Positions 2,916-21,269 of a stretch of 64,000 bases of DNA are shown piece after piece. The first letter of the stretch is position 1. The number at the start of each line of letters is the position of its first letter. Origin of the DNA: a virus. Taxonomy: Duplodnaviria; Caudoviricetes. A program made the translations under genes and the position numbers. The DNA lies in IMG/VR virus record IMGVR_UViG_3300010167_000010, positions 160,001-224,000 of that record. The stretch is one strand, 5' to 3'. The notes beneath the pieces were generated by a model. It had not been told where the DNA came from. It did no database searches and saw nothing but the letters and a program-made list of their open reading frames with translations.

Positions 2916-4188
2916 CCCATTCCTCTTTATATTCTGGATCTTCTTCATCCACTTTATCAATTATTCCATATTTTTTTATTAAACCACTTTCTAATTCTTC
3001 TATAGAATTATATTCTTCCCCTTGAAAAATAAATGGTGTTTGTTCTTTTTCTAATAAAAGAATGTCCATCAATTCATATAACATATGTTGTTTTAATTTT
3101 CCAGTTTCTTCATCAAAATAATTTATTAAAGAATATTGTTTTTGCTTATCTTGGGTTTTAATGCTTAAAAGATCATCAGTAACGTTTTTTAAATCTTTAA
3201 ATTCTTTTTTATTAAAAGCACCTTTTCTAGTAAAATTATCTGGAAAAGATCTAATCCTAGATTTAATTTCATCCCATTCTTGTGAAGTCCAACAACCCTT
3301 TTTTCCTAAATAAGAATCTAGCCTTAAAAGTTTTCTAGTATCTAATTCTTTATATATTTCATCATTTTTATTATCGTATGGAACGATTTTAATTAAAGAC
3401 GGATCAAATAACATTATATTACCAATATCATTTTCTTTAGAAACATACCCATCATATTCTAATCGTTTAATTATTTTAGTAACTTCCGGATTTTCCATAT
3501 AATTCCAATCATGACTAGAAAACATTAAGTCTAATTCTTTTTGAAGATTATTCATTACTGCTTTATATTGTCGTTTAGCATAATTTTCATAAAATTCTTC
3601 TGGGTTTTTTCTAACTTCTATTAAAAATTTTTCTCTATCTTTTCTATTTGAAGGGTTAAATATATTAGGTTGTTTAATAATTAAACATTTATAAACATAA
3701 AATTCATATTGATCAAATTTTGTACTTAAGTATGAATCTAAATAATGATGAATCATCGTTAAGTGTGGTGTTAAAAATACACCACCAAAAGTATCATCAC
3801 CTTTTCTAAAACTATTTCTTTTTTCAAACTGAGTAAATTTATTAGGTGATATATGATAATAAAATCTACGACTATTATAAGCCATTTCGTTTAAACGATA
3901 TATATCATCAAATGTTTTTTCTTTAAATGAACTTTTAGCATTTTCAAATCCTCTTTTATTCCCAGCTCTGAAAGCATTTGCTACCATTTTTCCAATTTCT
4001 TCATTTTTAAGATAACCATAACTATCTACAAAATTTGTAGTTTTTTGATATAAAATTGATCCATAATCATCTGGGTTTGGGCTTGTTTCCCATTCTCTTC
4101 CACCTTCTCTGGGATCCCAATTTTTTGGGAAATATTTATCTATGTCTTCTTCTGACATTGCTTCTAATATTTTTTCAAAAGATTTCAT
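2908..4188 (-). CDS. ADP-ribosyltransferase-like putative internal head protein
   Basis: MKSFEKILE N-terminus; YYHIS...GVFLTP...NIFN...EYDGY; ATGA overlap with the kinase gene. Confidence 0.55.
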   Translation of the reverse strand: MKSFEKILEAMSEEDIDKYFPKNWDPREGGREWETSPNPDDYGSILYQKTTNFVDSYGYLKNEEIGKMVANAFRAGNKRGFENAKSSFKEKTFDDIYRLNEMAYNSRRFYYHISPNKFTQFEKRNSFRKGDDTFGGVFLTPHLTMIHHYLDSYLSTKFDQYEFYVYKCLIIKQPNIFNPSNRKDREKFLIEVRKNPEEFYENYAKRQYKAVMNNLQKELDLMFSSHDWNYMENPEVTKIIKRLEYDGYVSKENDIGNIMLFDPSLIKIVPYDNKNDEIYKELDTRKLLRLDSYLGKKGCWTSQEWDEIKSRIRSFPDNFTRKGAFNKKEFKDLKNVTDDLLSIKTQDKQKQYSLINYFDEETGKLKQHMLYELMDILLLEKEQTPFIFQGEEYNSIEELESGLIKKYGIIDKVDEEDPEYKEEWDA

Positions 4189-6345: not shown

Positions 6346-8844
6346 TTAGTCCTTTCTAATACGATTTTTTAACCAATCTTCATAATTATTAAAGTCATCG
6401 TATAAATAATTATATAATTCTCTTTTAACTAAAACTGGTTCTACACGTTGATGGGCTGATAATTCTAAATTATGTCTAATAAAAAATTCTTTAGTAATTT
6501 TTTCTACATAATAATCTATCAAAAATTTAATTATAGATCTATCCGAAGCTACACCATCTCTTTCTAAAATTTGTTTTTTCGCATCATCCCAACTTTTTGG
6601 TATTTCTTCAATCATTCTAATTTTAGCAGAATTTTCTGGTTTATCAGGTTTACCATAATAAAAATTTTTTAATTTTTCAGTAACCATTTCTGATAAATTG
6701 TTTTCATAAGTTTTATTTATTTTTTCTGGATCTATATTTAATATATTTTCTGCATAATAATTTATAGTATCATCAGATACATTACAATCAGTAAAAGTAA
6801 TAGTTCCTGTAATTTCTTTTGGTAAAAAATTAACATAATGTTTGTCAAATTCACATTCTTTAAAAATTACATTTCCTGTTAGTTTATTTGGGAAAAAATC
6901 TTCATTATAATTATATTCACTTATATTAGTTAAAATAAAATTTTTACAGATAATTTCTGATATAAGTGCTGGAAATTCCGCTGTACTTTCTAAACCCGTT
7001 ACTGGACTATTATATGCATCAGCTATAGATCTTTTAAATACATGTTTTAATAATATTGGTATTTCTCTTTTACCAAATACAATTCCGTGATTACTATCAT
7101 CATTTAAGAAAACAGTATCGTGGTCTCTTATAGTTAAAGTAAATGTTTGATTACCATTATATTTTAAATCAAAACCTCCTCCAAATTCAGCTTCTATTTC
7201 ATCTAAATCTTTTAAAAACCATTCGACTGCTCTTCCAAATGCTGGTCCATGATCTTCTTTCATATAATCTTTGTTACCAGTAACATCTATAACTCGTTGA
7301 TTTCCTTTTGGAGATTTTTTATTCATTTCTTCTTTTATATCTTTAAAAATTGGATATAAATCTACTTCTTCTAATTTACCATTTGTAGACATTAATTTTT
7401 GAATATAATCTAAATTCATATTATTTCCAATTTGTGTATCTTCTTGGTCCCAAACATTTGCAGTATTTTCTATTGGATTATATTCTATCATAAATTTTTT
7501 ATTTTCAGTTCTATCATATTGCATTAGAAATAAATGACGTTTATGTTGTGTGTAGTTTTTCCAGTGAGTACCTACAGGCCCATAAGCAGTATTTGTTGTA
7601 CCAATACACCACTTTGCTCCTATACCATGTGCATTAAAAGAATTCATAAATACCGCAGCTTTATAGGTAAATGGAGCAACAAATATTTGATCTGAATCAT
7701 GATAATAAACTTTTGTTCCAGGTACGTCTTTCCAAATTGCTGATAAATCTTCACCTGATTTAGATTTTTTTATATTTTTAGACTTAGTTTTTTCAGCTGA
7801 TTCCATTACATCTGAAAAATCAGAAAATTTTAAATTTTTTTTATTCCAATCTATTTTACTTTCTGCGTGTGGATTTTTATTAAAAAAAACTATTAATTTT
7901 TCTTTTTCTTCTTGATCTAAATTAGGTAATTTTTTAATTAGGTGATCTTTCTTTTCTTGTAAATGTTTTGGTAATTCGTAGACATGAGCATCAATAAAAT
8001 CGTATCCTTTTTCGCTAGCAATAGTAGCTCTATGATTTCCATCCATTACACAATATTGATCTTTAAAATGAAAAACATCTATTGGTTTAATATCAATTTT
8101 ACCGTTTCCATCTGAAATATTATCAAATTGTTCCCAATCATAATCATCTGTATCATCATCTTCAAATTCTTGCACTATTTTATTTAATGGTATAGTTTTT
8201 AACTTAGATTTACATTTAGCTTTTATACAATCAGCCCACCATCTATATCTATCATCAGGATCCATTTCTTCAATAGGAAATCCATCCCAATCCATTGATG
8301 GAAATTCAGTATATTTTGATTTTTCATATATTTGATTAAAACTTTCTGTTATACGTTCGTCTTCAATTGGCTCTTCTAATTCATCCATCTCAGCAGCTTT
8401 GGTTTCTTCTTCAACTTCGGTATTTTCTGGAAGTGAAGGTTCTTCAATTGGTGGCTCTACTTCTTCTGGTCCTTTTTGAGCTTTAGTTTCTGCTTCAATT
8501 GGTTTTGCATCAACGTTAGATGTATTCATTTTTGGTAAATCTAAAGTTTCAGCGTGTGATTGAATATCTTCAATATCAGCAGCAACAGTTTCTTCTGCAG
8601 CTTCTGATCTAATGCTATCTTCTGTTCTAGTTCCTTCAGATGGTGTTCCCGCTGGTGCTTCAGGTGCTTCAAGTGGTTCATCGGGTTGTGTTGTTGCTGT
8701 AGCTGTAGATTGTGTACTGCCCATCATTTTTAACATTTCTGGAATATCATTATCTAAGTGCTGTAAAACAGCCCAGATATGTTTACAAATTTGGGTTCCG
8801 GGATGTGATTCTTGTAATAATTCATACTGTTCTTGAAGTGTCAT
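6346..8844 (-). CDS. multidomain late protein: C-terminal half of SWIM Zn finger, acidic linker, ParB/Srx-like and PcfJ-like (KWCI) domains
   Basis: ICKHIWAVL near N-terminus; YCVMDGNHR; GAKWCIGT; late motif ACTAAATAAT abuts ATG. Confidence 0.65.
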   Translation of the reverse strand: MTLQEQYELLQESHPGTQICKHIWAVLQHLDNDIPEMLKMMGSTQSTATATTQPDEPLEAPEAPAGTPSEGTRTEDSIRSEAAEETVAADIEDIQSHAETLDLPKMNTSNVDAKPIEAETKAQKGPEEVEPPIEEPSLPENTEVEEETKAAEMDELEEPIEDERITESFNQIYEKSKYTEFPSMDWDGFPIEEMDPDDRYRWWADCIKAKCKSKLKTIPLNKIVQEFEDDDTDDYDWEQFDNISDGNGKIDIKPIDVFHFKDQYCVMDGNHRATIASEKGYDFIDAHVYELPKHLQEKKDHLIKKLPNLDQEEKEKLIVFFNKNPHAESKIDWNKKNLKFSDFSDVMESAEKTKSKNIKKSKSGEDLSAIWKDVPGTKVYYHDSDQIFVAPFTYKAAVFMNSFNAHGIGAKWCIGTTNTAYGPVGTHWKNYTQHKRHLFLMQYDRTENKKFMIEYNPIENTANVWDQEDTQIGNNMNLDYIQKLMSTNGKLEEVDLYPIFKDIKEEMNKKSPKGNQRVIDVTGNKDYMKEDHGPAFGRAVEWFLKDLDEIEAEFGGGFDLKYNGNQTFTLTIRDHDTVFLNDDSNHGIVFGKREIPILLKHVFKRSIADAYNSPVTGLESTAEFPALISEIICKNFILTNISEYNYNEDFFPNKLTGNVIFKECEFDKHYVNFLPKEITGTITFTDCNVSDDTINYYAENILNIDPEKINKTYENNLSEMVTEKLKNFYYGKPDKPENSAKIRMIEEIPKSWDDAKKQILERDGVASDRSIIKFLIDYYVEKITKEFFIRHNLELSAHQRVEPVLVKRELYNYLYDDFNNYEDWLKNRIRKD

Positions 8845-8912
8845 ATTATTTAGTTAATTTTTAAAACATATTTCTGTTTACATACTTGTTAACTTAAATA
8901 TAACTAAATAAT

Positions 8913-9494
8913 ATGAATATGTTAAAATGGAAAAAAGATCTAAATAAAGATTGGACTTGGCGAAATTTAGCTGTTAAATATTTTAATTTACAAAAAGGTG
9001 AAATAATTCACCATTTACGAGAAACTGAAGAGCAAAGAGATTTTAACGATAACCATTATGAAAGATGGGGATTTGATTTTGATAGTGAAATGAAATATGC
9101 AATTAAAATGACAGCTGAAGAACATAATAAATATCATTATCAAAATGAAGAAACTAAACAAAAAAGATTAAAAACTTTAAAACAAAATAATAAAAAATGG
9201 ATTATAACAGAAGAACATAGAAAAAAATTAAGCGCAGCTTCTAAAGGGAAATCAAAATCAAAAGATCATATTGAAAATAATAAAAAAGCAAGACAATGGT
9301 ATTTTAATCAAGGTCCTTCTAAAGAAACTAATAAAAAAAGAAGCGATACAATGAAACAAAAATATACTGATGGTGAACTTTTTTCAGAAGAACATAGAAA
9401 AAATTTAAGTATTGCAGCAAAAAAAAGAACACCAATGAGTGAAGAAACTAAAAATAAAATAAGAAATACTTTAAAAAATAAAATTAAACTTTAG
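8913..9494 (+). mobile_element. free-standing HNH homing endonuclease with NUMOD3-like repeats
   Basis: IIHH...EEHNKYH; repeats EEHRKKLSAASKGK, SEEHRKNLS, MSEETKNKI; antisense to flanking genes with its own late motif at 8903-8912. Confidence 0.8.
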
Positions 9495-16976: not shown

Positions 16977-17849
16977 ATGAAAGTACAGTCGTTATCTGTA
17001 TGTGTTCCTGGAAATAATTGTATAAATAATTGTCGTTGTTGTGTTTCCAGAATGCATAATAATGATAAACTTTATAAAAATCAACTTGAAGAGAATATTG
17101 CATTTTATGATTTATACTTAAATGATTTTATGAAGAGATTACAATTTTGTAGAGATAATGGTTGTAATACTTTAATGTTAACTGGGACAGTTGAACCGCA
17201 ACAGAATATGTCTTTCTTAAAAGATTTTGGAATAATGATGCGATTAATGAATAATCCTTTCCCAATAATCGAAATGCAAACTACTGGAGTTACAATTGAT
17301 AATCCTAAACTTCGCTTTTTAAGAAATCATGTTGGTGTGAGCACAATATCTTTAAGTTTATTTTCTTTTAATGATAAAGAAAACCAAAATTGTAGAGATA
17401 GTAAATTAGAATTAAATATAAAAGAATTTTGTGATGCTATAAAACTATATGATTTTAATTTACGATTAAGTTTGAATTTAACTAAATATTTTGAAAGATT
17501 TACTCCAGAACAATTAATTATAAGCTGTAAAATTTTAGGTGCTGATCAAATAACTTTTAGAAGACTCTATGATACAAATGATGGAAGTGAACAATCTGAA
17601 TGGACTAAACAAAATAGAGCAACCGAAAATTTTGAAAAAGAACTTTTAAAGTTTTTTGAAAAACAAACTGTCTTAAGAAGATTAGAACATGGACCAATAG
17701 TTCGTTCTATTGATGGAATAAGCACTGTTTTTGATTTAGATTGCATGGCTAAAGAAGATAAACATGATGATAAATGGAAATATTTGATTGTTAGACCTAA
17801 TGGAAAATTATACAGTTCTTGGGATGATCCTGCAAGTTTAATATTTTAG
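16977..17849 (+). CDS. radical SAM protein
   Basis: CINNCRCC (CxxxCxxC), LTGTVEP, C-terminal RPNGKLY. Confidence 0.85.
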   Translation: MKVQSLSVCVPGNNCINNCRCCVSRMHNNDKLYKNQLEENIAFYDLYLNDFMKRLQFCRDNGCNTLMLTGTVEPQQNMSFLKDFGIMMRLMNNPFPIIEMQTTGVTIDNPKLRFLRNHVGVSTISLSLFSFNDKENQNCRDSKLELNIKEFCDAIKLYDFNLRLSLNLTKYFERFTPEQLIISCKILGADQITFRRLYDTNDGSEQSEWTKQNRATENFEKELLKFFEKQTVLRRLEHGPIVRSIDGISTVFDLDCMAKEDKHDDKWKYLIVRPNGKLYSSWDDPASLIF

Positions 17850-17864
17850 GTTAATTTATATTAT

Positions 17865-18058
17865 GGTTACGTAGTTTAAGGAAAATACTTATAATACCTT
17901 CGAGTGGGATAAGATTTAAGCCTGAAGTAGATAATACAAGAAGTAAGGTTCGCAAGTTAAATTTTTAGTATGATATGGTTTGGCGGCGCCGTTAATAAGC
18001 CACTCTGTAGAAATACGATCTTTTATAGGAGATGCTGGCTCGAGGCCAACCGTAATCA
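17865..18058 (+). ncRNA. tRNA-like RNA with 132 nt replacing the anticodon loop
   Basis: Acceptor GGTTACG/CGTAATC+A, U8A9, D-stem GTTT/AAAT with GG in loop, anticodon stem CTTAT/ATAGG, variable AGAT, T-arm GCTGG-CTCGAGG-CCAAC (one mismatch); no encoded CCA. Confidence 0.7.
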
Positions 18059-18060
18059 AA

Positions 18061-18330
18061 ATGAAAACAGTAGAAGAAATTTATTCTTATTTAGTTAACA
18101 TCAAAAATGAAGCATCAAAAATGAATGAAGATTCTTTCGATAAAACTAAAGCATTTAAATTTGTTTATAATCATATTCTAGATTTAATTGATGAACTAAA
18201 CTTTATTGATGAAGAAAATGAATTATTTGATGATGATAATTTTGATAGAAAACCAATAATAACTCAAAAGAAAAAAGAAGATAATGATTTATCTACTACT
18301 GGTAAAATAGATTTAGATGATCTTATTTAG
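18061..18330 (+). CDS. hypothetical protein
   Basis: ATG 18061 (MKTVEEIYSY) just after the tRNA-like RNA; the longer TTG start would run through the RNA. Confidence 0.65.
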   Translation: MKTVEEIYSYLVNIKNEASKMNEDSFDKTKAFKFVYNHILDLIDELNFIDEENELFDDDNFDRKPIITQKKKEDNDLSTTGKIDLDDLI

Positions 18331-19352
18331 GACAAATAGCTCTATTTTGAAAACCAAATTTAAAAGCTTTTTCAGCTGATGATATATGTCCCTTTACATA
18401 TTTTTCTGCTGTTTCATACGGAAAATTTTTAATCCAATTTAAAGATTTTTTATAAGTATCTTTTTCTCTTTCAATTCCAATAAAATTACGATTACTAATA
18501 ATAGAAGAAATACCACTTGCACCACTACCCATAAATGGATCTAATACAGTTTCCCCTTCATTCGAAGATATCATCATTAACATTGATAATAATAAAATTG
18601 GCTTTTGGCATGAGTGAATAGCAGAATCGAATTTATTATTATATGATGGGTTTACAAAAAATGTTACATCAGAAGGATAACCATCAAATTTGAGTGGAAG
18701 TCCAGATGCAATGTCACATACCGTTCCCTTCTTTTGGGCTGTTTCTTCAAATTGGCATTCACTAGAAAATGCCATGATATTACCTAATGAAGTAAATCGT
18801 AATGGTGTTTTCCCATCTTCTCCATAGTCCCACCCTCGTTTTATTCCGCCTTTCATTTTATATGGTGCAATAACTTTTCGAAGATATTCTACAGAATTCC
18901 AAATATAATTTTTAGAATCTTTAGTAAGATGAAATATATCTTCTCGTAATGACTTTAATTTTTTAGTAGTTCCTCTTCCAGATTCTCTAGCATAAATAGC
19001 CCAATTTTCTAAATGATTAGTAAAACCTGTCATTTTAATTGCAGAAAACATTTCGTGTATTCTTGTTGGTCCAAAAAATACCCAACAAGTTCCGGTTGGT
19101 GTTAAAACTCTATAGATTTCATGTAACCATTTCGCAGTAAAGTGAATAAAATCTTCCGATGTTTTAAAAGTGTCCCAATCTGTTTCATTCTTATTGTGAT
19201 ACTTATTATTGAATTTAATTCCGTATGGAACTCACCTAAGGAGGGTCGGCTATAACACAGCCGACCGAATTATCTGGAAACTGTTTAAGAAAATGAAAAC
19301 AATCTCCATTATATAATTTTATATTAGAAGTATATAGATTTAATTCATTCAT
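18323..19352 (-). CDS. beta-class N6A/N4C DNA methyltransferase interrupted by a 13-nt gap inside DPPY
   Basis: 5' part 19352-19239 MNELN...LYNGDCFHFLKQFPDNSVGCVIADPP-TAG; 3' part from 19228 PYGIKF...EIYRVLTPTG...HSCQKP...VLDPFMGSG...FIGIE in another frame. Confidence 0.85.
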
Positions 19353-19448
19353 AGTAATGAGTTTAAATCGTTATTTTTTAAAATCTTCTGACTATATTTA
19401 TAATTGAGGAATACTATTTTCTAGCCTCTTCCCAACAATGGAGAAAAA

Positions 19449-21269
19449 ATGAAAAAAAGAATAAGTCTATTAGTAAAAATTAATGGCATAACGTCTATAT
19501 TATTGTTAACTTCAATAATTATATTGTCAATCATAAATATACAATCATTAATTGATGCAAGCAAAGAAACATCAATAATGATGGGAGAGGATAAACTAGT
19601 AAGTTGTATGTATTCATTTGAATATAGATTAAATCAAGAATATGGAAAAATATTTTTATTGGATAATGATTTAATTTCTGAAAATGGAAATTCTATTTCA
19701 AATGATTTTGCTGTTATAGATGATATATCTAAAAATTTAGGTATTCGTGCAACTATTTATATTCGAGAAAATAATGATTTTAGAAGAATAAATACTAGTA
19801 AAATTGATTTACAAGGAAATAGACCAATAAATACAAGATTAGGAGAAAGAGAAATAATTAATTCTATTTTATCTGGAAATTCTTATATTGGTTATACTAC
19901 TATTTTTGGTAATAATTATTTAGCATTTTATAAACCTTTATTTGAATACGGAACTCAAAACGTAATTGGAATAGCTTTTGCTGGTTCTGAACTAGCTGAT
20001 ATAGAAAATTTCATTGATTCTATTATAAAAAATAAAATAATTTTATTAATTTTTAAAACTTTAGCTATTTTATTTGTATCAGTAATAGCAAATATATTAT
20101 TTTGTAGATTTATTTTACTCAAACCAATAAAAGAAACAAACAAAATTTTAAAACACATTGGTGAAGGTGATCTTACTAAAAAAATGGAAGTTAAAAATAA
20201 TGATGAAATTGGTGAAATGCAAGAATATATTAATACAACAATTCAAAATATAAAACATTTAGTAAATACTATAAAACAAGAAGTAAATAAATCTGAAGAA
20301 ATTGGTCATGATTTATCTGCAAATTTAACTCAGACTGCAGCAGCTGTAAATGAAATATCTGCTAATATGCAAAGTATTAAAGAAAGAATTATTAGTCAAG
20401 CTGCTTCTGTAACAGAAACAAAAGCAACTATGGAACAAATTGTTACTAATATTGATAAATTAGACGATAGTATTGAACACCAAGCAAACTCAGTTTCACA
20501 GTCATCTTCTGCTATAGAACAGATGCTTGCCAATATTCAATCAGTAACACAAACACTTGTGAAAAATGGTGATAACGTTAAAGCACTCTTAACTGCTTCA
20601 GATATTGGTCATAAAGGATTACAAAATGTTTCTGAAACAGTAAATGAAGTTACAAAAGAATCAGAACAATTATTAGAAATAAATAAAATTATTCAAGATA
20701 TTGCATCTCAAACTAATCTTTTATCTATGAATGCAGCTATCGAAGCTGCACATGCTGGAGATGCAGGAAAAGGATTCGCGGTTGTAGCAGAAGAAATTAG
20801 AAAATTAGCAGATAGCTCGTCGCAACAATCTAATGTAATTAAACAAGTACTAAAAAAAATTATGGGTGACATAGAATCAGCTACTAAACTTGTTGCAGAT
20901 GTTTTAACAAAATTTGATTTAGTAGATGAGAATGTAAAAACGGTTGCCGAACAAGAAGATAGTATCCGTTGTTCTATGGAAGAACAATCAGTTGGTAGTA
21001 AACAAATTCTTGAATCTATAAGTAAAGTTAATGAAGTATCTCAACAAGTTAAACATGGTTCTAAAGAGATGTTAGAAGGTTCATCTGAAGTAATACGAGA
21101 AAGTAAAGATTTAGAAAGAGTTACTCAAGAAATATCTAGTAATATAAATGAGATGGCAGCAGGCGTCGACCAAATAAATATTGCTGTTCATCAAATAAGT
21201 GAGTTAGGTACTAAAAATAAAGAACAAACTAGAATATTATTAGAAGAAATTAGTAAATTTACTGTTTAG
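19449..21269 (+). CDS. methyl-accepting chemotaxis protein (Cache-HAMP-MCP signal)
   Basis: Two TMs, GDLT...NDEIGEM HAMP, QTNLLSMNAAIEAAHAGDAGKGFAVVAEEIRKLA tip; GGAG SD. Confidence 0.95.
   Translation: MKKRISLLVKINGITSILLLTSIIILSIINIQSLIDASKETSIMMGEDKLVSCMYSFEYRLNQEYGKIFLLDNDLISENGNSISNDFAVIDDISKNLGIRATIYIRENNDFRRINTSKIDLQGNRPINTRLGEREIINSILSGNSYIGYTTIFGNNYLAFYKPLFEYGTQNVIGIAFAGSELADIENFIDSIIKNKIILLIFKTLAILFVSVIANILFCRFILLKPIKETNKILKHIGEGDLTKKMEVKNNDEIGEMQEYINTTIQNIKHLVNTIKQEVNKSEEIGHDLSANLTQTAAAVNEISANMQSIKERIISQAASVTETKATMEQIVTNIDKLDDSIEHQANSVSQSSSAIEQMLANIQSVTQTLVKNGDNVKALLTASDIGHKGLQNVSETVNEVTKESEQLLEINKIIQDIASQTNLLSMNAAIEAAHAGDAGKGFAVVAEEIRKLADSSSQQSNVIKQVLKKIMGDIESATKLVADVLTKFDLVDENVKTVAEQEDSIRCSMEEQSVGSKQILESISKVNEVSQQVKHGSKEMLEGSSEVIRESKDLERVTQEISSNINEMAAGVDQINIAVHQISELGTKNKEQTRILLEEISKFTV

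Follow-up and report, generated by a model that had tools for sequence, protein, structure and literature searches.

To our knowledge, natural translational bypassing, the hopping of ribosomes over a non-coding gap, has been documented for very few genes: phage T4 gene 60 and its homologues, the terminase gene of phage phiHau3 and genes in the mitochondria of one yeast. Here we describe a candidate in a DNA methyltransferase gene of a jumbo phage, carried on a stretch of 64,000 nucleotides (nt; hereafter the window) that comprises bases 160001–224000 of the 329,018-bp IMG/VR record IMGVR_UViG_3300010167_000010. The record has direct terminal repeats and is rated complete, its G+C content is about 28%, and the public runs in which the stretch was found are termite-gut metagenomes. 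On the minus strand the gene reads GCC GAC CCT CCT TAG GTGAGTT CCA TAC GGA, with a first frame that ends D-P-P at a TAG stop (19238–19236) and a second that resumes, in a different register, at the TAC. The 13 nt between the two frames contain a hexamer resembling a Shine–Dalgarno (SD) sequence and follow closely on a GC-rich hairpin. They may constitute a short translational coding gap that some ribosomes hop, whether the hop is selected or simply tolerated, and we give this reading about even odds (a probability of roughly 0.5).

T4 gene 60, with its 50-nt bypass, and its Topo2L homologues resemble the window in having take-off and landing codons matched to one tRNA and a UAG after take-off (bioRxiv 10.1101/2022.08.31.505936; PMC5462505). 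In T4 gene 60, as in the window, the insertion lies within an invariant catalytic motif, a mini-SD sits about 6 nt ahead of the landing codon (the AGG of the hexamer, in the window) and a 5' stem-loop is proposed to drive forward movement. Among gene 60 homologues the mini-SD lies 5–6 nt ahead of landing, and take-off and landing codons mismatched at the wobble base are tolerated (bioRxiv 10.1101/2022.08.31.505936); pairing of the exiting mRNA has been put forward as the forward driver (bioRxiv 10.1101/2024.12.09.627546). In gene 60 and its homologues, take-off is followed by either a stop or a hungry codon. Unlike gene 60, the window has a gap of 13 rather than 50 nt, no take-off stem-loop inside that gap and a take-off codon for Pro rather than for Gly or Asp. 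It also has no known nascent-peptide signal besides Pro-Pro (a C-terminal Pro-Pro impairs termination; PMC3834316), no cassette for MobA or another nuclease and no conservation.

In the terminase gene of the Streptomyces phage phiHau3, 10-nt inserts are bypassed, and the junction peptide has been identified by mass spectrometry (PMC10732093). According to the summary of Smith et al. 2013 given in that paper, there are two such inserts and, like the one in the window, they are frame-disrupting additions of about 10 nt that are absent from homologues. Both loci have a slow-to-decode codon in the A site at take-off, with a nearby stem-loop and an internal SD as the proposed stimulators, and an engineered +1-frame UGA in the phiHau3 gap doubled recoding (PMC10732093); the window gap has one naturally. 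In contrast, the phiHau3 A-site codon is the rare sense codon UUA, for which a stop was only substituted experimentally, the gene is essential and inserts occur in three related phage or prophage genes (PMC10732093), whereas the window would have UAG in the A site, in an accessory gene and in a single lineage. The mitochondrial byps of Magnusiomyces capitatus, as cited in PMC10732093 and in a preprint by Manning and Atkins, are likewise short non-coding inserts between matched codons with wobble differences tolerated. Unlike the window gap, they are described as mobile elements of 27–55 nt, many per genome and with no SD. In the jumbo phage, a genome-wide scan for junctions that combine a stop, a frame switch and a long lead without starts returned the methylase gene as the only convincing candidate, with no second one.

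The arrangement had been described in an earlier note on this DNA, and its coordinates, the TAG after D-P-P, the closed resume frame and the 13-nt skip that restores DPPYGIKF all hold. The first open reading frame (ORF1; 19239–19352, minus strand) covers codons 1–38 (M...CVIADPP), starts with an ATG at 19352–19350 and aligns to residues 1–38 of full-length relatives. The second (ORF2, or P0001; 18323–19225, minus strand) supplies codons 39–338 (YGIKF...ICPK; 300 codons) and the stop, with TAC at 19225–19223 as its resume codon. ORF2 matches the N6/N4 DNA methylase family PF01555 with an E-value of 9e-31, has its first ATG, GTG or TTG only at 19051 and is closed on its upstream side by a TGA at 19234–19232. 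A simple +1 or −1 frameshift is impossible, because this TGA in the resume frame sits downstream of the 0-frame TAG. When the 13 nt are left out, DPP and YGIKF abut with no residue lost or gained in protein and DNA alignments with full-length relatives, and the joined frames predict the junction peptide QFPDNSVGCVIADPPYGIK. An alternative genetic code was also considered and rejected: under table 11 long ORFs already account for 90% of the genome, and reading TGA as W or TAG as Q does not lengthen the longest ones. Nor would such a code rescue the methylase gene, the frame of which is restored by no recoding, and a suppressor tRNA is absent among the phage tRNA genes.

The motifs of the gene place it among the beta-class N6/N4 DNA methyltransferases. 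It has the PF01555 domain, motif I (FxGxG; DPFMGSGAS) near the C terminus and motif IV ((D/S)PP(Y/F); DPPY) near the N terminus, the latter only once the frames are joined. The nearest solved structures, reached via the relative P0002, are those of MboIIA, CcrM and RsrI. No other PF01555 gene is present in the phage genome, and the methylase is syntenic in related jumbo phages.

The gap (TAGGTGAGTTCCA; 19226–19238, minus strand) consists of the TAG, an SD-like AGGTGA (19232–19237) overlapping the AG of that TAG, and the landing CCA, and it corresponds precisely to the nucleotides that are extra relative to relatives. CCT (Pro38; 19239–19241), the proposed take-off codon, is the last sense codon ahead of the TAG and makes up 30% of Pro codons, while the proposed landing codon, CCA (19226–19228), makes up 61% and is the cognate codon of a phage-encoded tRNA-Pro(UGG), whose gene lies at genome positions 119551–119623 and is one of 22 tRNA genes in the phage. 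One peptidyl-tRNA can pair with both CCU and CCA, and the gap has no further CCN. AGGTGA is a 6-nt complement of the 16S rRNA 3' tail; it begins at 19237 and ends at 19232, 3 nt ahead of the landing codon as the earlier note had claimed, with its AGG 6 nt ahead, and the spacing is suitable. The host–phage system uses SD pairing, a 5-mer (AGGAG or AAGGA) being found upstream of the starts of 33% of phage genes versus 4% at random positions. A small second hairpin (GTTCC-ATAC-GGAAT; 19218–19231, minus strand), which includes the landing codon, appears in both the minimum-free-energy and the centroid folds and is weak.

How often such a combination would arise by chance was gauged from random 13-mers of this genome, of which 7.5% have the stop first, 2.5% end in CCN and 0.5% contain, within their first ten bases, 6 nt complementary to the 16S tail; all three features occur jointly in 1.4e-5. 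The 13 nt were found to have no template, direct or inverted, nearby or elsewhere in the genome, and an untemplated insert of this length is unusual for a small spontaneous insertion. A perfect match over 18 nt, in an unrelated gene of an Aquimarina genome, was set aside as chance.

The GC-rich hairpin by the Pro codons, to which the earlier note had drawn attention, proved to be stable far beyond chance. Its arms (GGTCGGCTGT and ATAGCCGACC; 19244–19266, minus strand) enclose a GTT loop, form 10 bp including one G-U pair and end 2 nt before the take-off codon. The fold has −16.7 kcal/mol in a 28-nt segment, which ranks it as the seventh most stable local hairpin on both strands of the 329-kb genome, most of the others being intergenic terminators. 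With neither a T-run nor an Rfam match, it is not a terminator or a known RNA family. The surrounding 111-nt region has a z-score of −3.2 versus dinucleotide shuffles, and the equivalent 42 nt in six relatives fold with −2 to −6.3 kcal/mol. The stem is written in the codons TCG, GTC, GGC, GCC and GAC, which account for 3.1, 3.8, 7.7, 5.6 and 11.5% of their respective codon families (product, ~6e-7). Its 3' arm is near the ancestral ATA GCN GAY C, and, compared with the nearest relative, its 5' arm has four changes in six bases, every one of them towards complementarity. Because of this direction of change and the rare codons of the stem, the hairpin is not a product of drift and was either selected or made by a one-step template-switch mutation.

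Assembly error, which the earlier note had wanted excluded, is ruled out. The 13 nt recur identically in three further assemblies or contigs from other samples: ENA ERZ27257297 (L002; 329,032 bp) and Logan SRR5215140 (L003), which are 100% identical to the window over the junction and 5–6.7 kb, and a 151-nt contig from a further run of another study (X4), which spans 19161–19311 with zero differences. The insert is identical in at least four assemblies or runs from different samples, which supports a coding gap. ERZ27257297 also contains an intact relative of the phage. The 242-amino-acid (aa) ORF that a gene caller makes of the methylase 3' part is present on 7 contigs, 2 of them from other samples. 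A termite-gut metatranscriptome run (X5) yielded a 180-nt contig that matches 18387–18566, within this 3' part, with 1 mismatch; this is compatible with, and no proof of, transcription of the 3' part.

The remainder of the gene is intact. The joined protein keeps all 47 alignment columns that do not vary among 27 full-length relatives and has no further stop or frameshift, which agrees with the earlier note's impression that both halves are otherwise intact. Pairwise ratios of nonsynonymous to synonymous substitution rates (dN/dS) between the joined gene and relatives are 0.08–0.19 (about 0.11), as compared to 0.07–0.23 among the relatives themselves, with dS above 1. The methylase family is under purifying selection, and the relaxed selection on the 3' part that would have spoken for a recent pseudogene was not seen, the dN/dS values lying in the relatives' range. 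Signs of a decaying pseudogene (relaxed selection or extra disabling lesions) are absent from the joined gene, as they would also be with a very recent lesion; if the insert is a lesion, it appears to be recent relative to the long branch on which it sits. Where purifying selection acts on a gene, an insertion has a better chance of persisting if its context happens to allow bypass.

The steps of the hop, its efficiency and whether it is selected or merely tolerated are all matters that we infer. A ribosome on ORF1 would stall when the P site holds CCU, paired with peptidyl-tRNA-Pro, and the A site holds UAG, termination being slow after a C-terminal Pro-Pro. The peptidyl-tRNA-Pro would then let go of CCU and the mRNA would slide by 13 nt. 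The GC-rich hairpin would help by folding again behind the ribosome, its 10 bp closing as the 3' arm emerges from the mRNA channel and zips up with the 5' arm. AGGUGA would pair with the 16S rRNA tail, capturing the slid state and putting CCA in the P site, where the same tRNA-Pro would re-pair; decoding would restart at UAC, and the product would be a normal DPPYGIKF methyltransferase. Such a hop might throttle methylase output, as the earlier note proposed.

Gaps of a similar kind were found in other phage methylases. An IMG/VR scan for GAT CCN CCN TAY GGN TAG gave 28 matches, including 5 loci in genuine methylase genes that represent four distinct genes. These have gaps of TAGTGGC (7 nt; GGA to GGC) at L040 8032–8053 and in L049, TAGCTAGGA (9 nt; GGT to GGA) at L051 4096–4119 on the minus strand, TAGTCACTCTAAGGT (15 nt; GGT to GGT) at L044 7112–7141 and TAGTACCACGGC (12 nt; GGA to GGC) at L055 2995–3021, and the downstream frame is intact in all of them (185–410 aa). 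L040 and L051 both belong to PF01555 and are 55% identical; L044 and L055 are homologous, with 47–67% identity, L044 matching PF01555 only below the cut-off and L055 having no PF01555 match. Decoding across the DPPYG gaps is comparatively supported, because both homologous pairs share the gap site and retain matched Gly codons despite differing gap sequences. From these comparisons, the DPPYG gaps look like an unpublished family of short hop sites, and our literature search found no paper on methylase gaps or bypass.

The DPPYG-gap methylases share with the window the enzyme class, nearly the same site, a TAG right after take-off, a short gap (7–15 nt), a synonymous landing codon directly ahead of the resume codon and an intact downstream frame. 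They differ in that the hop would be from Gly to Gly, two codons further on, and in that the site recurs in homologues that are 47–67% identical, whereas the window gap is Pro to Pro within DPPY, is unique and has a far stronger 5' hairpin. In L044 the methylase with the gap (7142–8374) also has a long insertion that looks intein-like and starts CLSADTEILT, and a gene for an endonuclease with HNH_3 and Vsr-like features (8391–9374) lies directly downstream of it.

A number of observations weigh against a hop in the window, beginning with its relatives. The closest of these encode uninterrupted proteins of 336–340 aa with 76–82% identity, one of them on a 328-kb contig that represents a sister jumbo phage; neither the gap nor the hairpin is present in relatives at 73–82% aa identity, and the six relatives with DNA (L004/L005 and five further; 72–77% nt identity) all lack the 13 nt. 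No second split form was found in the 120 best protein homologues, in 8 metagenome loci or in the truncated-looking matches that were checked, and three proteins that had seemed to be truncated homologues (P0030, P0041 and P0092) turned out to be contiguous with mis-called starts. As for the other searches, an IMG/VR protein search returned no relatives, the two-piece matches in a tblastn search of GenBank phages were only tandem separate methylases, and a search with 44 N-terminal aa for short ORFs that end at DPP gave one weak, uninformative match. The gap genotype is one clonal lineage, its assemblies being 100% identical over 5–6.7 kb, and because it is a single clone, selective maintenance and compensatory change are unmeasurable. 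Conservation of the gap and hairpin in homologues with compensatory changes, which the earlier note had proposed as a test, yielded no homologue with either and zero changes to count.

Further points on the same side are that the codons for take-off and landing are unequal at the wobble base and that the gap is without the internal stem-loop of T4 gene 60. No MobA-type nuclease cassette or remnant is adjacent: Pfam and PHROGs give no nuclease family for the neighbours, which are a chemotaxis-like gene and small ORFs. The junction is covered by no RNA contig, the only one being confined to the 3' part. Three IMG/VR scans for the window layout (DPP, stop, 4–16 nt, CCN TAY GG) gave only chance matches outside methylases, as did one scan for the hairpin-plus-stop layout. 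The features were picked out post hoc in a very large scan, and methylases are accessory genes that phages often lose. Of the properties that mark a bypass site, the window has a non-coding gap, matched codons, a slow A-site codon (UAG after Pro-Pro) and a predicted hairpin and SD-like element, and the gap and signals are not kept in diverged relatives. The programmed bypass of the earlier note is upheld to that extent: its architecture is as described and is joined by the tRNA-Pro(UGG) match, the SD spacing, the rare-codon hairpin, the lack of decay, the independent samples and the analogous gaps in other methylases, while homologues with a gap or hairpin are missing.

Because no homologue carries the gap or hairpin, a recently dead allele is a serious contender, one that we regard as quite possible. 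On this view the methylase was dispensable, and a 13-nt insertion of unknown origin would have inactivated it not long before the spread of the sampled clone. The stop, CC microhomology, SD-like hexamer and hairpin would be chance features or side effects of a single complex error in replication (template switching or repair mediated by microhomology), with at most trace, functionless hopping. This account fits the restriction of gap and hairpin to a single clonal genotype with uninterrupted genes in the relatives, the lack of a second Pro-to-Pro case in the IMG/VR scans and the presence of other DNA-modification genes in the phage, such as a C5 methylase. It predicts a normal dN/dS just as well if the insertion fell in the last few percent of the long branch (dS >1 to the nearest relative). 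Quasi-palindrome template switching can yield a perfect arm in one event, as in T4 rII studies, and the 5' arm could have come from such a switch copying the 3' arm in one step with no selection, which also tells against a selected hop. The insert, however, neither extends nor explains the hairpin, and only ~3 sense-strand intragenic hairpins of this strength occur in ~300 kb of coding DNA. Also at odds with a dead allele are the unusual nature of an untemplated 13-nt insert as a spontaneous mutation, the low joint chance of its stop-first, CCN-last and 6-nt anti-SD features, and a gene that is otherwise perfectly intact, with strong purifying selection across relatives.

Removal of the 13 nt from the RNA before translation, by a micro-intron or by endonuclease cleavage followed by an RNA ligase, is suggested by the resemblance of AG/GTGAGT to a eukaryotic 5' splice site and by two genes of the RNA-ligase family PF09414 in the phage (genome 124726–125187 and 226673–227170, plus strand). 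We know of no bacterial or phage splicing system, however, for a 13-nt insert; there is no group I or II intron or other Rfam family at 17700–19600 and no RtcB in the phage, the hairpin puts neither junction in a loop or bulge, and RNA contigs over the junction are lacking. We consider RNA removal very improbable, and the micro-intron that the earlier note had offered as its alternative is left without support. If instead the phage population were heterogeneous, a subpopulation without the 13 nt, through phase variation or polymorphism, would express the intact gene; contigs, on which our evidence is based rather than on raw reads, do drop rare variants. The insert is nevertheless in every assembly or contig over the site, and no direct repeat beyond CC flanks it to promote precise excision, making heterogeneity highly unlikely. 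Split enzymes exist in phages, and a 38-aa N-terminal peptide might combine with an internally started C-terminal protein to form an active methylase. Such a two-piece enzyme is hardly credible here, with the break inside a four-residue catalytic motif and no start or SD placed for the resume frame, which is without ATG, GTG or TTG for 59 codons; a start at 19051 would remove conserved residues.

A more elaborate version of the hop is possible, though we hold it only tentatively and are inclined to doubt it. The locus would be a minimal self-contained device in which a Pro-Pro/UAG stall, zipping of the 10-bp hairpin and SD-like capture suffice for a 13-nt Pro-to-Pro hop in DPPY, with no gap stem-loop or nuclease cassette. 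The lineage-specific hairpin would then be a compensatory rescue of a frameshift, caught as recoding at its evolutionary birth, and the whole would be part of a wider, unpublished habit of hop gaps at the DPPY of phage methylases.

A 13-nt hop from Pro to Pro, if true, would rank with the shortest in nature and be the first to be reported from a methyltransferase as well as from a termination stall at Pro-Pro, and it would offer a compact 60-nt cassette with which to test mRNA refolding behind the ribosome as a driver of forward sliding. Taken together with the conserved Gly-to-Gly DPPYG gaps in phage methylases unrelated to it, such a hop suggests that gene finders make a systematic error in calling genes of this kind broken and that short hops are less rare in phages than published accounts imply. 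If the allele is dead, it is an ordinary pseudogene with striking coincidences.

Upstream of the methylase ATG lies a 13-nt leader motif (TTTAAACTCATTA; 19355–19367, minus strand), 2 nt before the start and with no SD sequence. ACTCATTACT, ahead of the same ATG, was labelled a 'late'-motif variant in the earlier note and is at most a candidate for such a motif. TTTAAACTCATTA is found 2–4 nt ahead of the ATG in both DNA-methylase genes of the phage (N6/N4 and C5), again with no SD, its copy at the C5 gene being at genome 82879–82891 on the plus strand (L017 1193–1205). It also occurs ahead of methylase genes in the relatives L004/L005 (L004 about 2985–3000) and L018 (about 1362–1376), and AAACTCATTA has only 5 copies in the genome. 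TTTAAACTCATTA may be a shared regulatory or translational signal of methylase genes.

Divergent from the methylase gene, the window encodes a 606-aa methyl-accepting chemotaxis-like protein (19449–21269, plus strand; Cache, HAMP and MCPsignal domains) that is conserved in relatives. The relatives also have an extra 178-aa ORF over the methylase stop (L004 4005–4541, and L009), which is absent in the window phage and has no Pfam match and a weak PHROG match of unknown function. Outside the window, at genome 131714–132745 and 133319–134173 on the plus strand, two open frames of 343 and 284 codons lie 574 nt apart and are without ATG, GTG or TTG for 147 and all 284 codons, respectively; they may be an intron-split or otherwise recoded gene.

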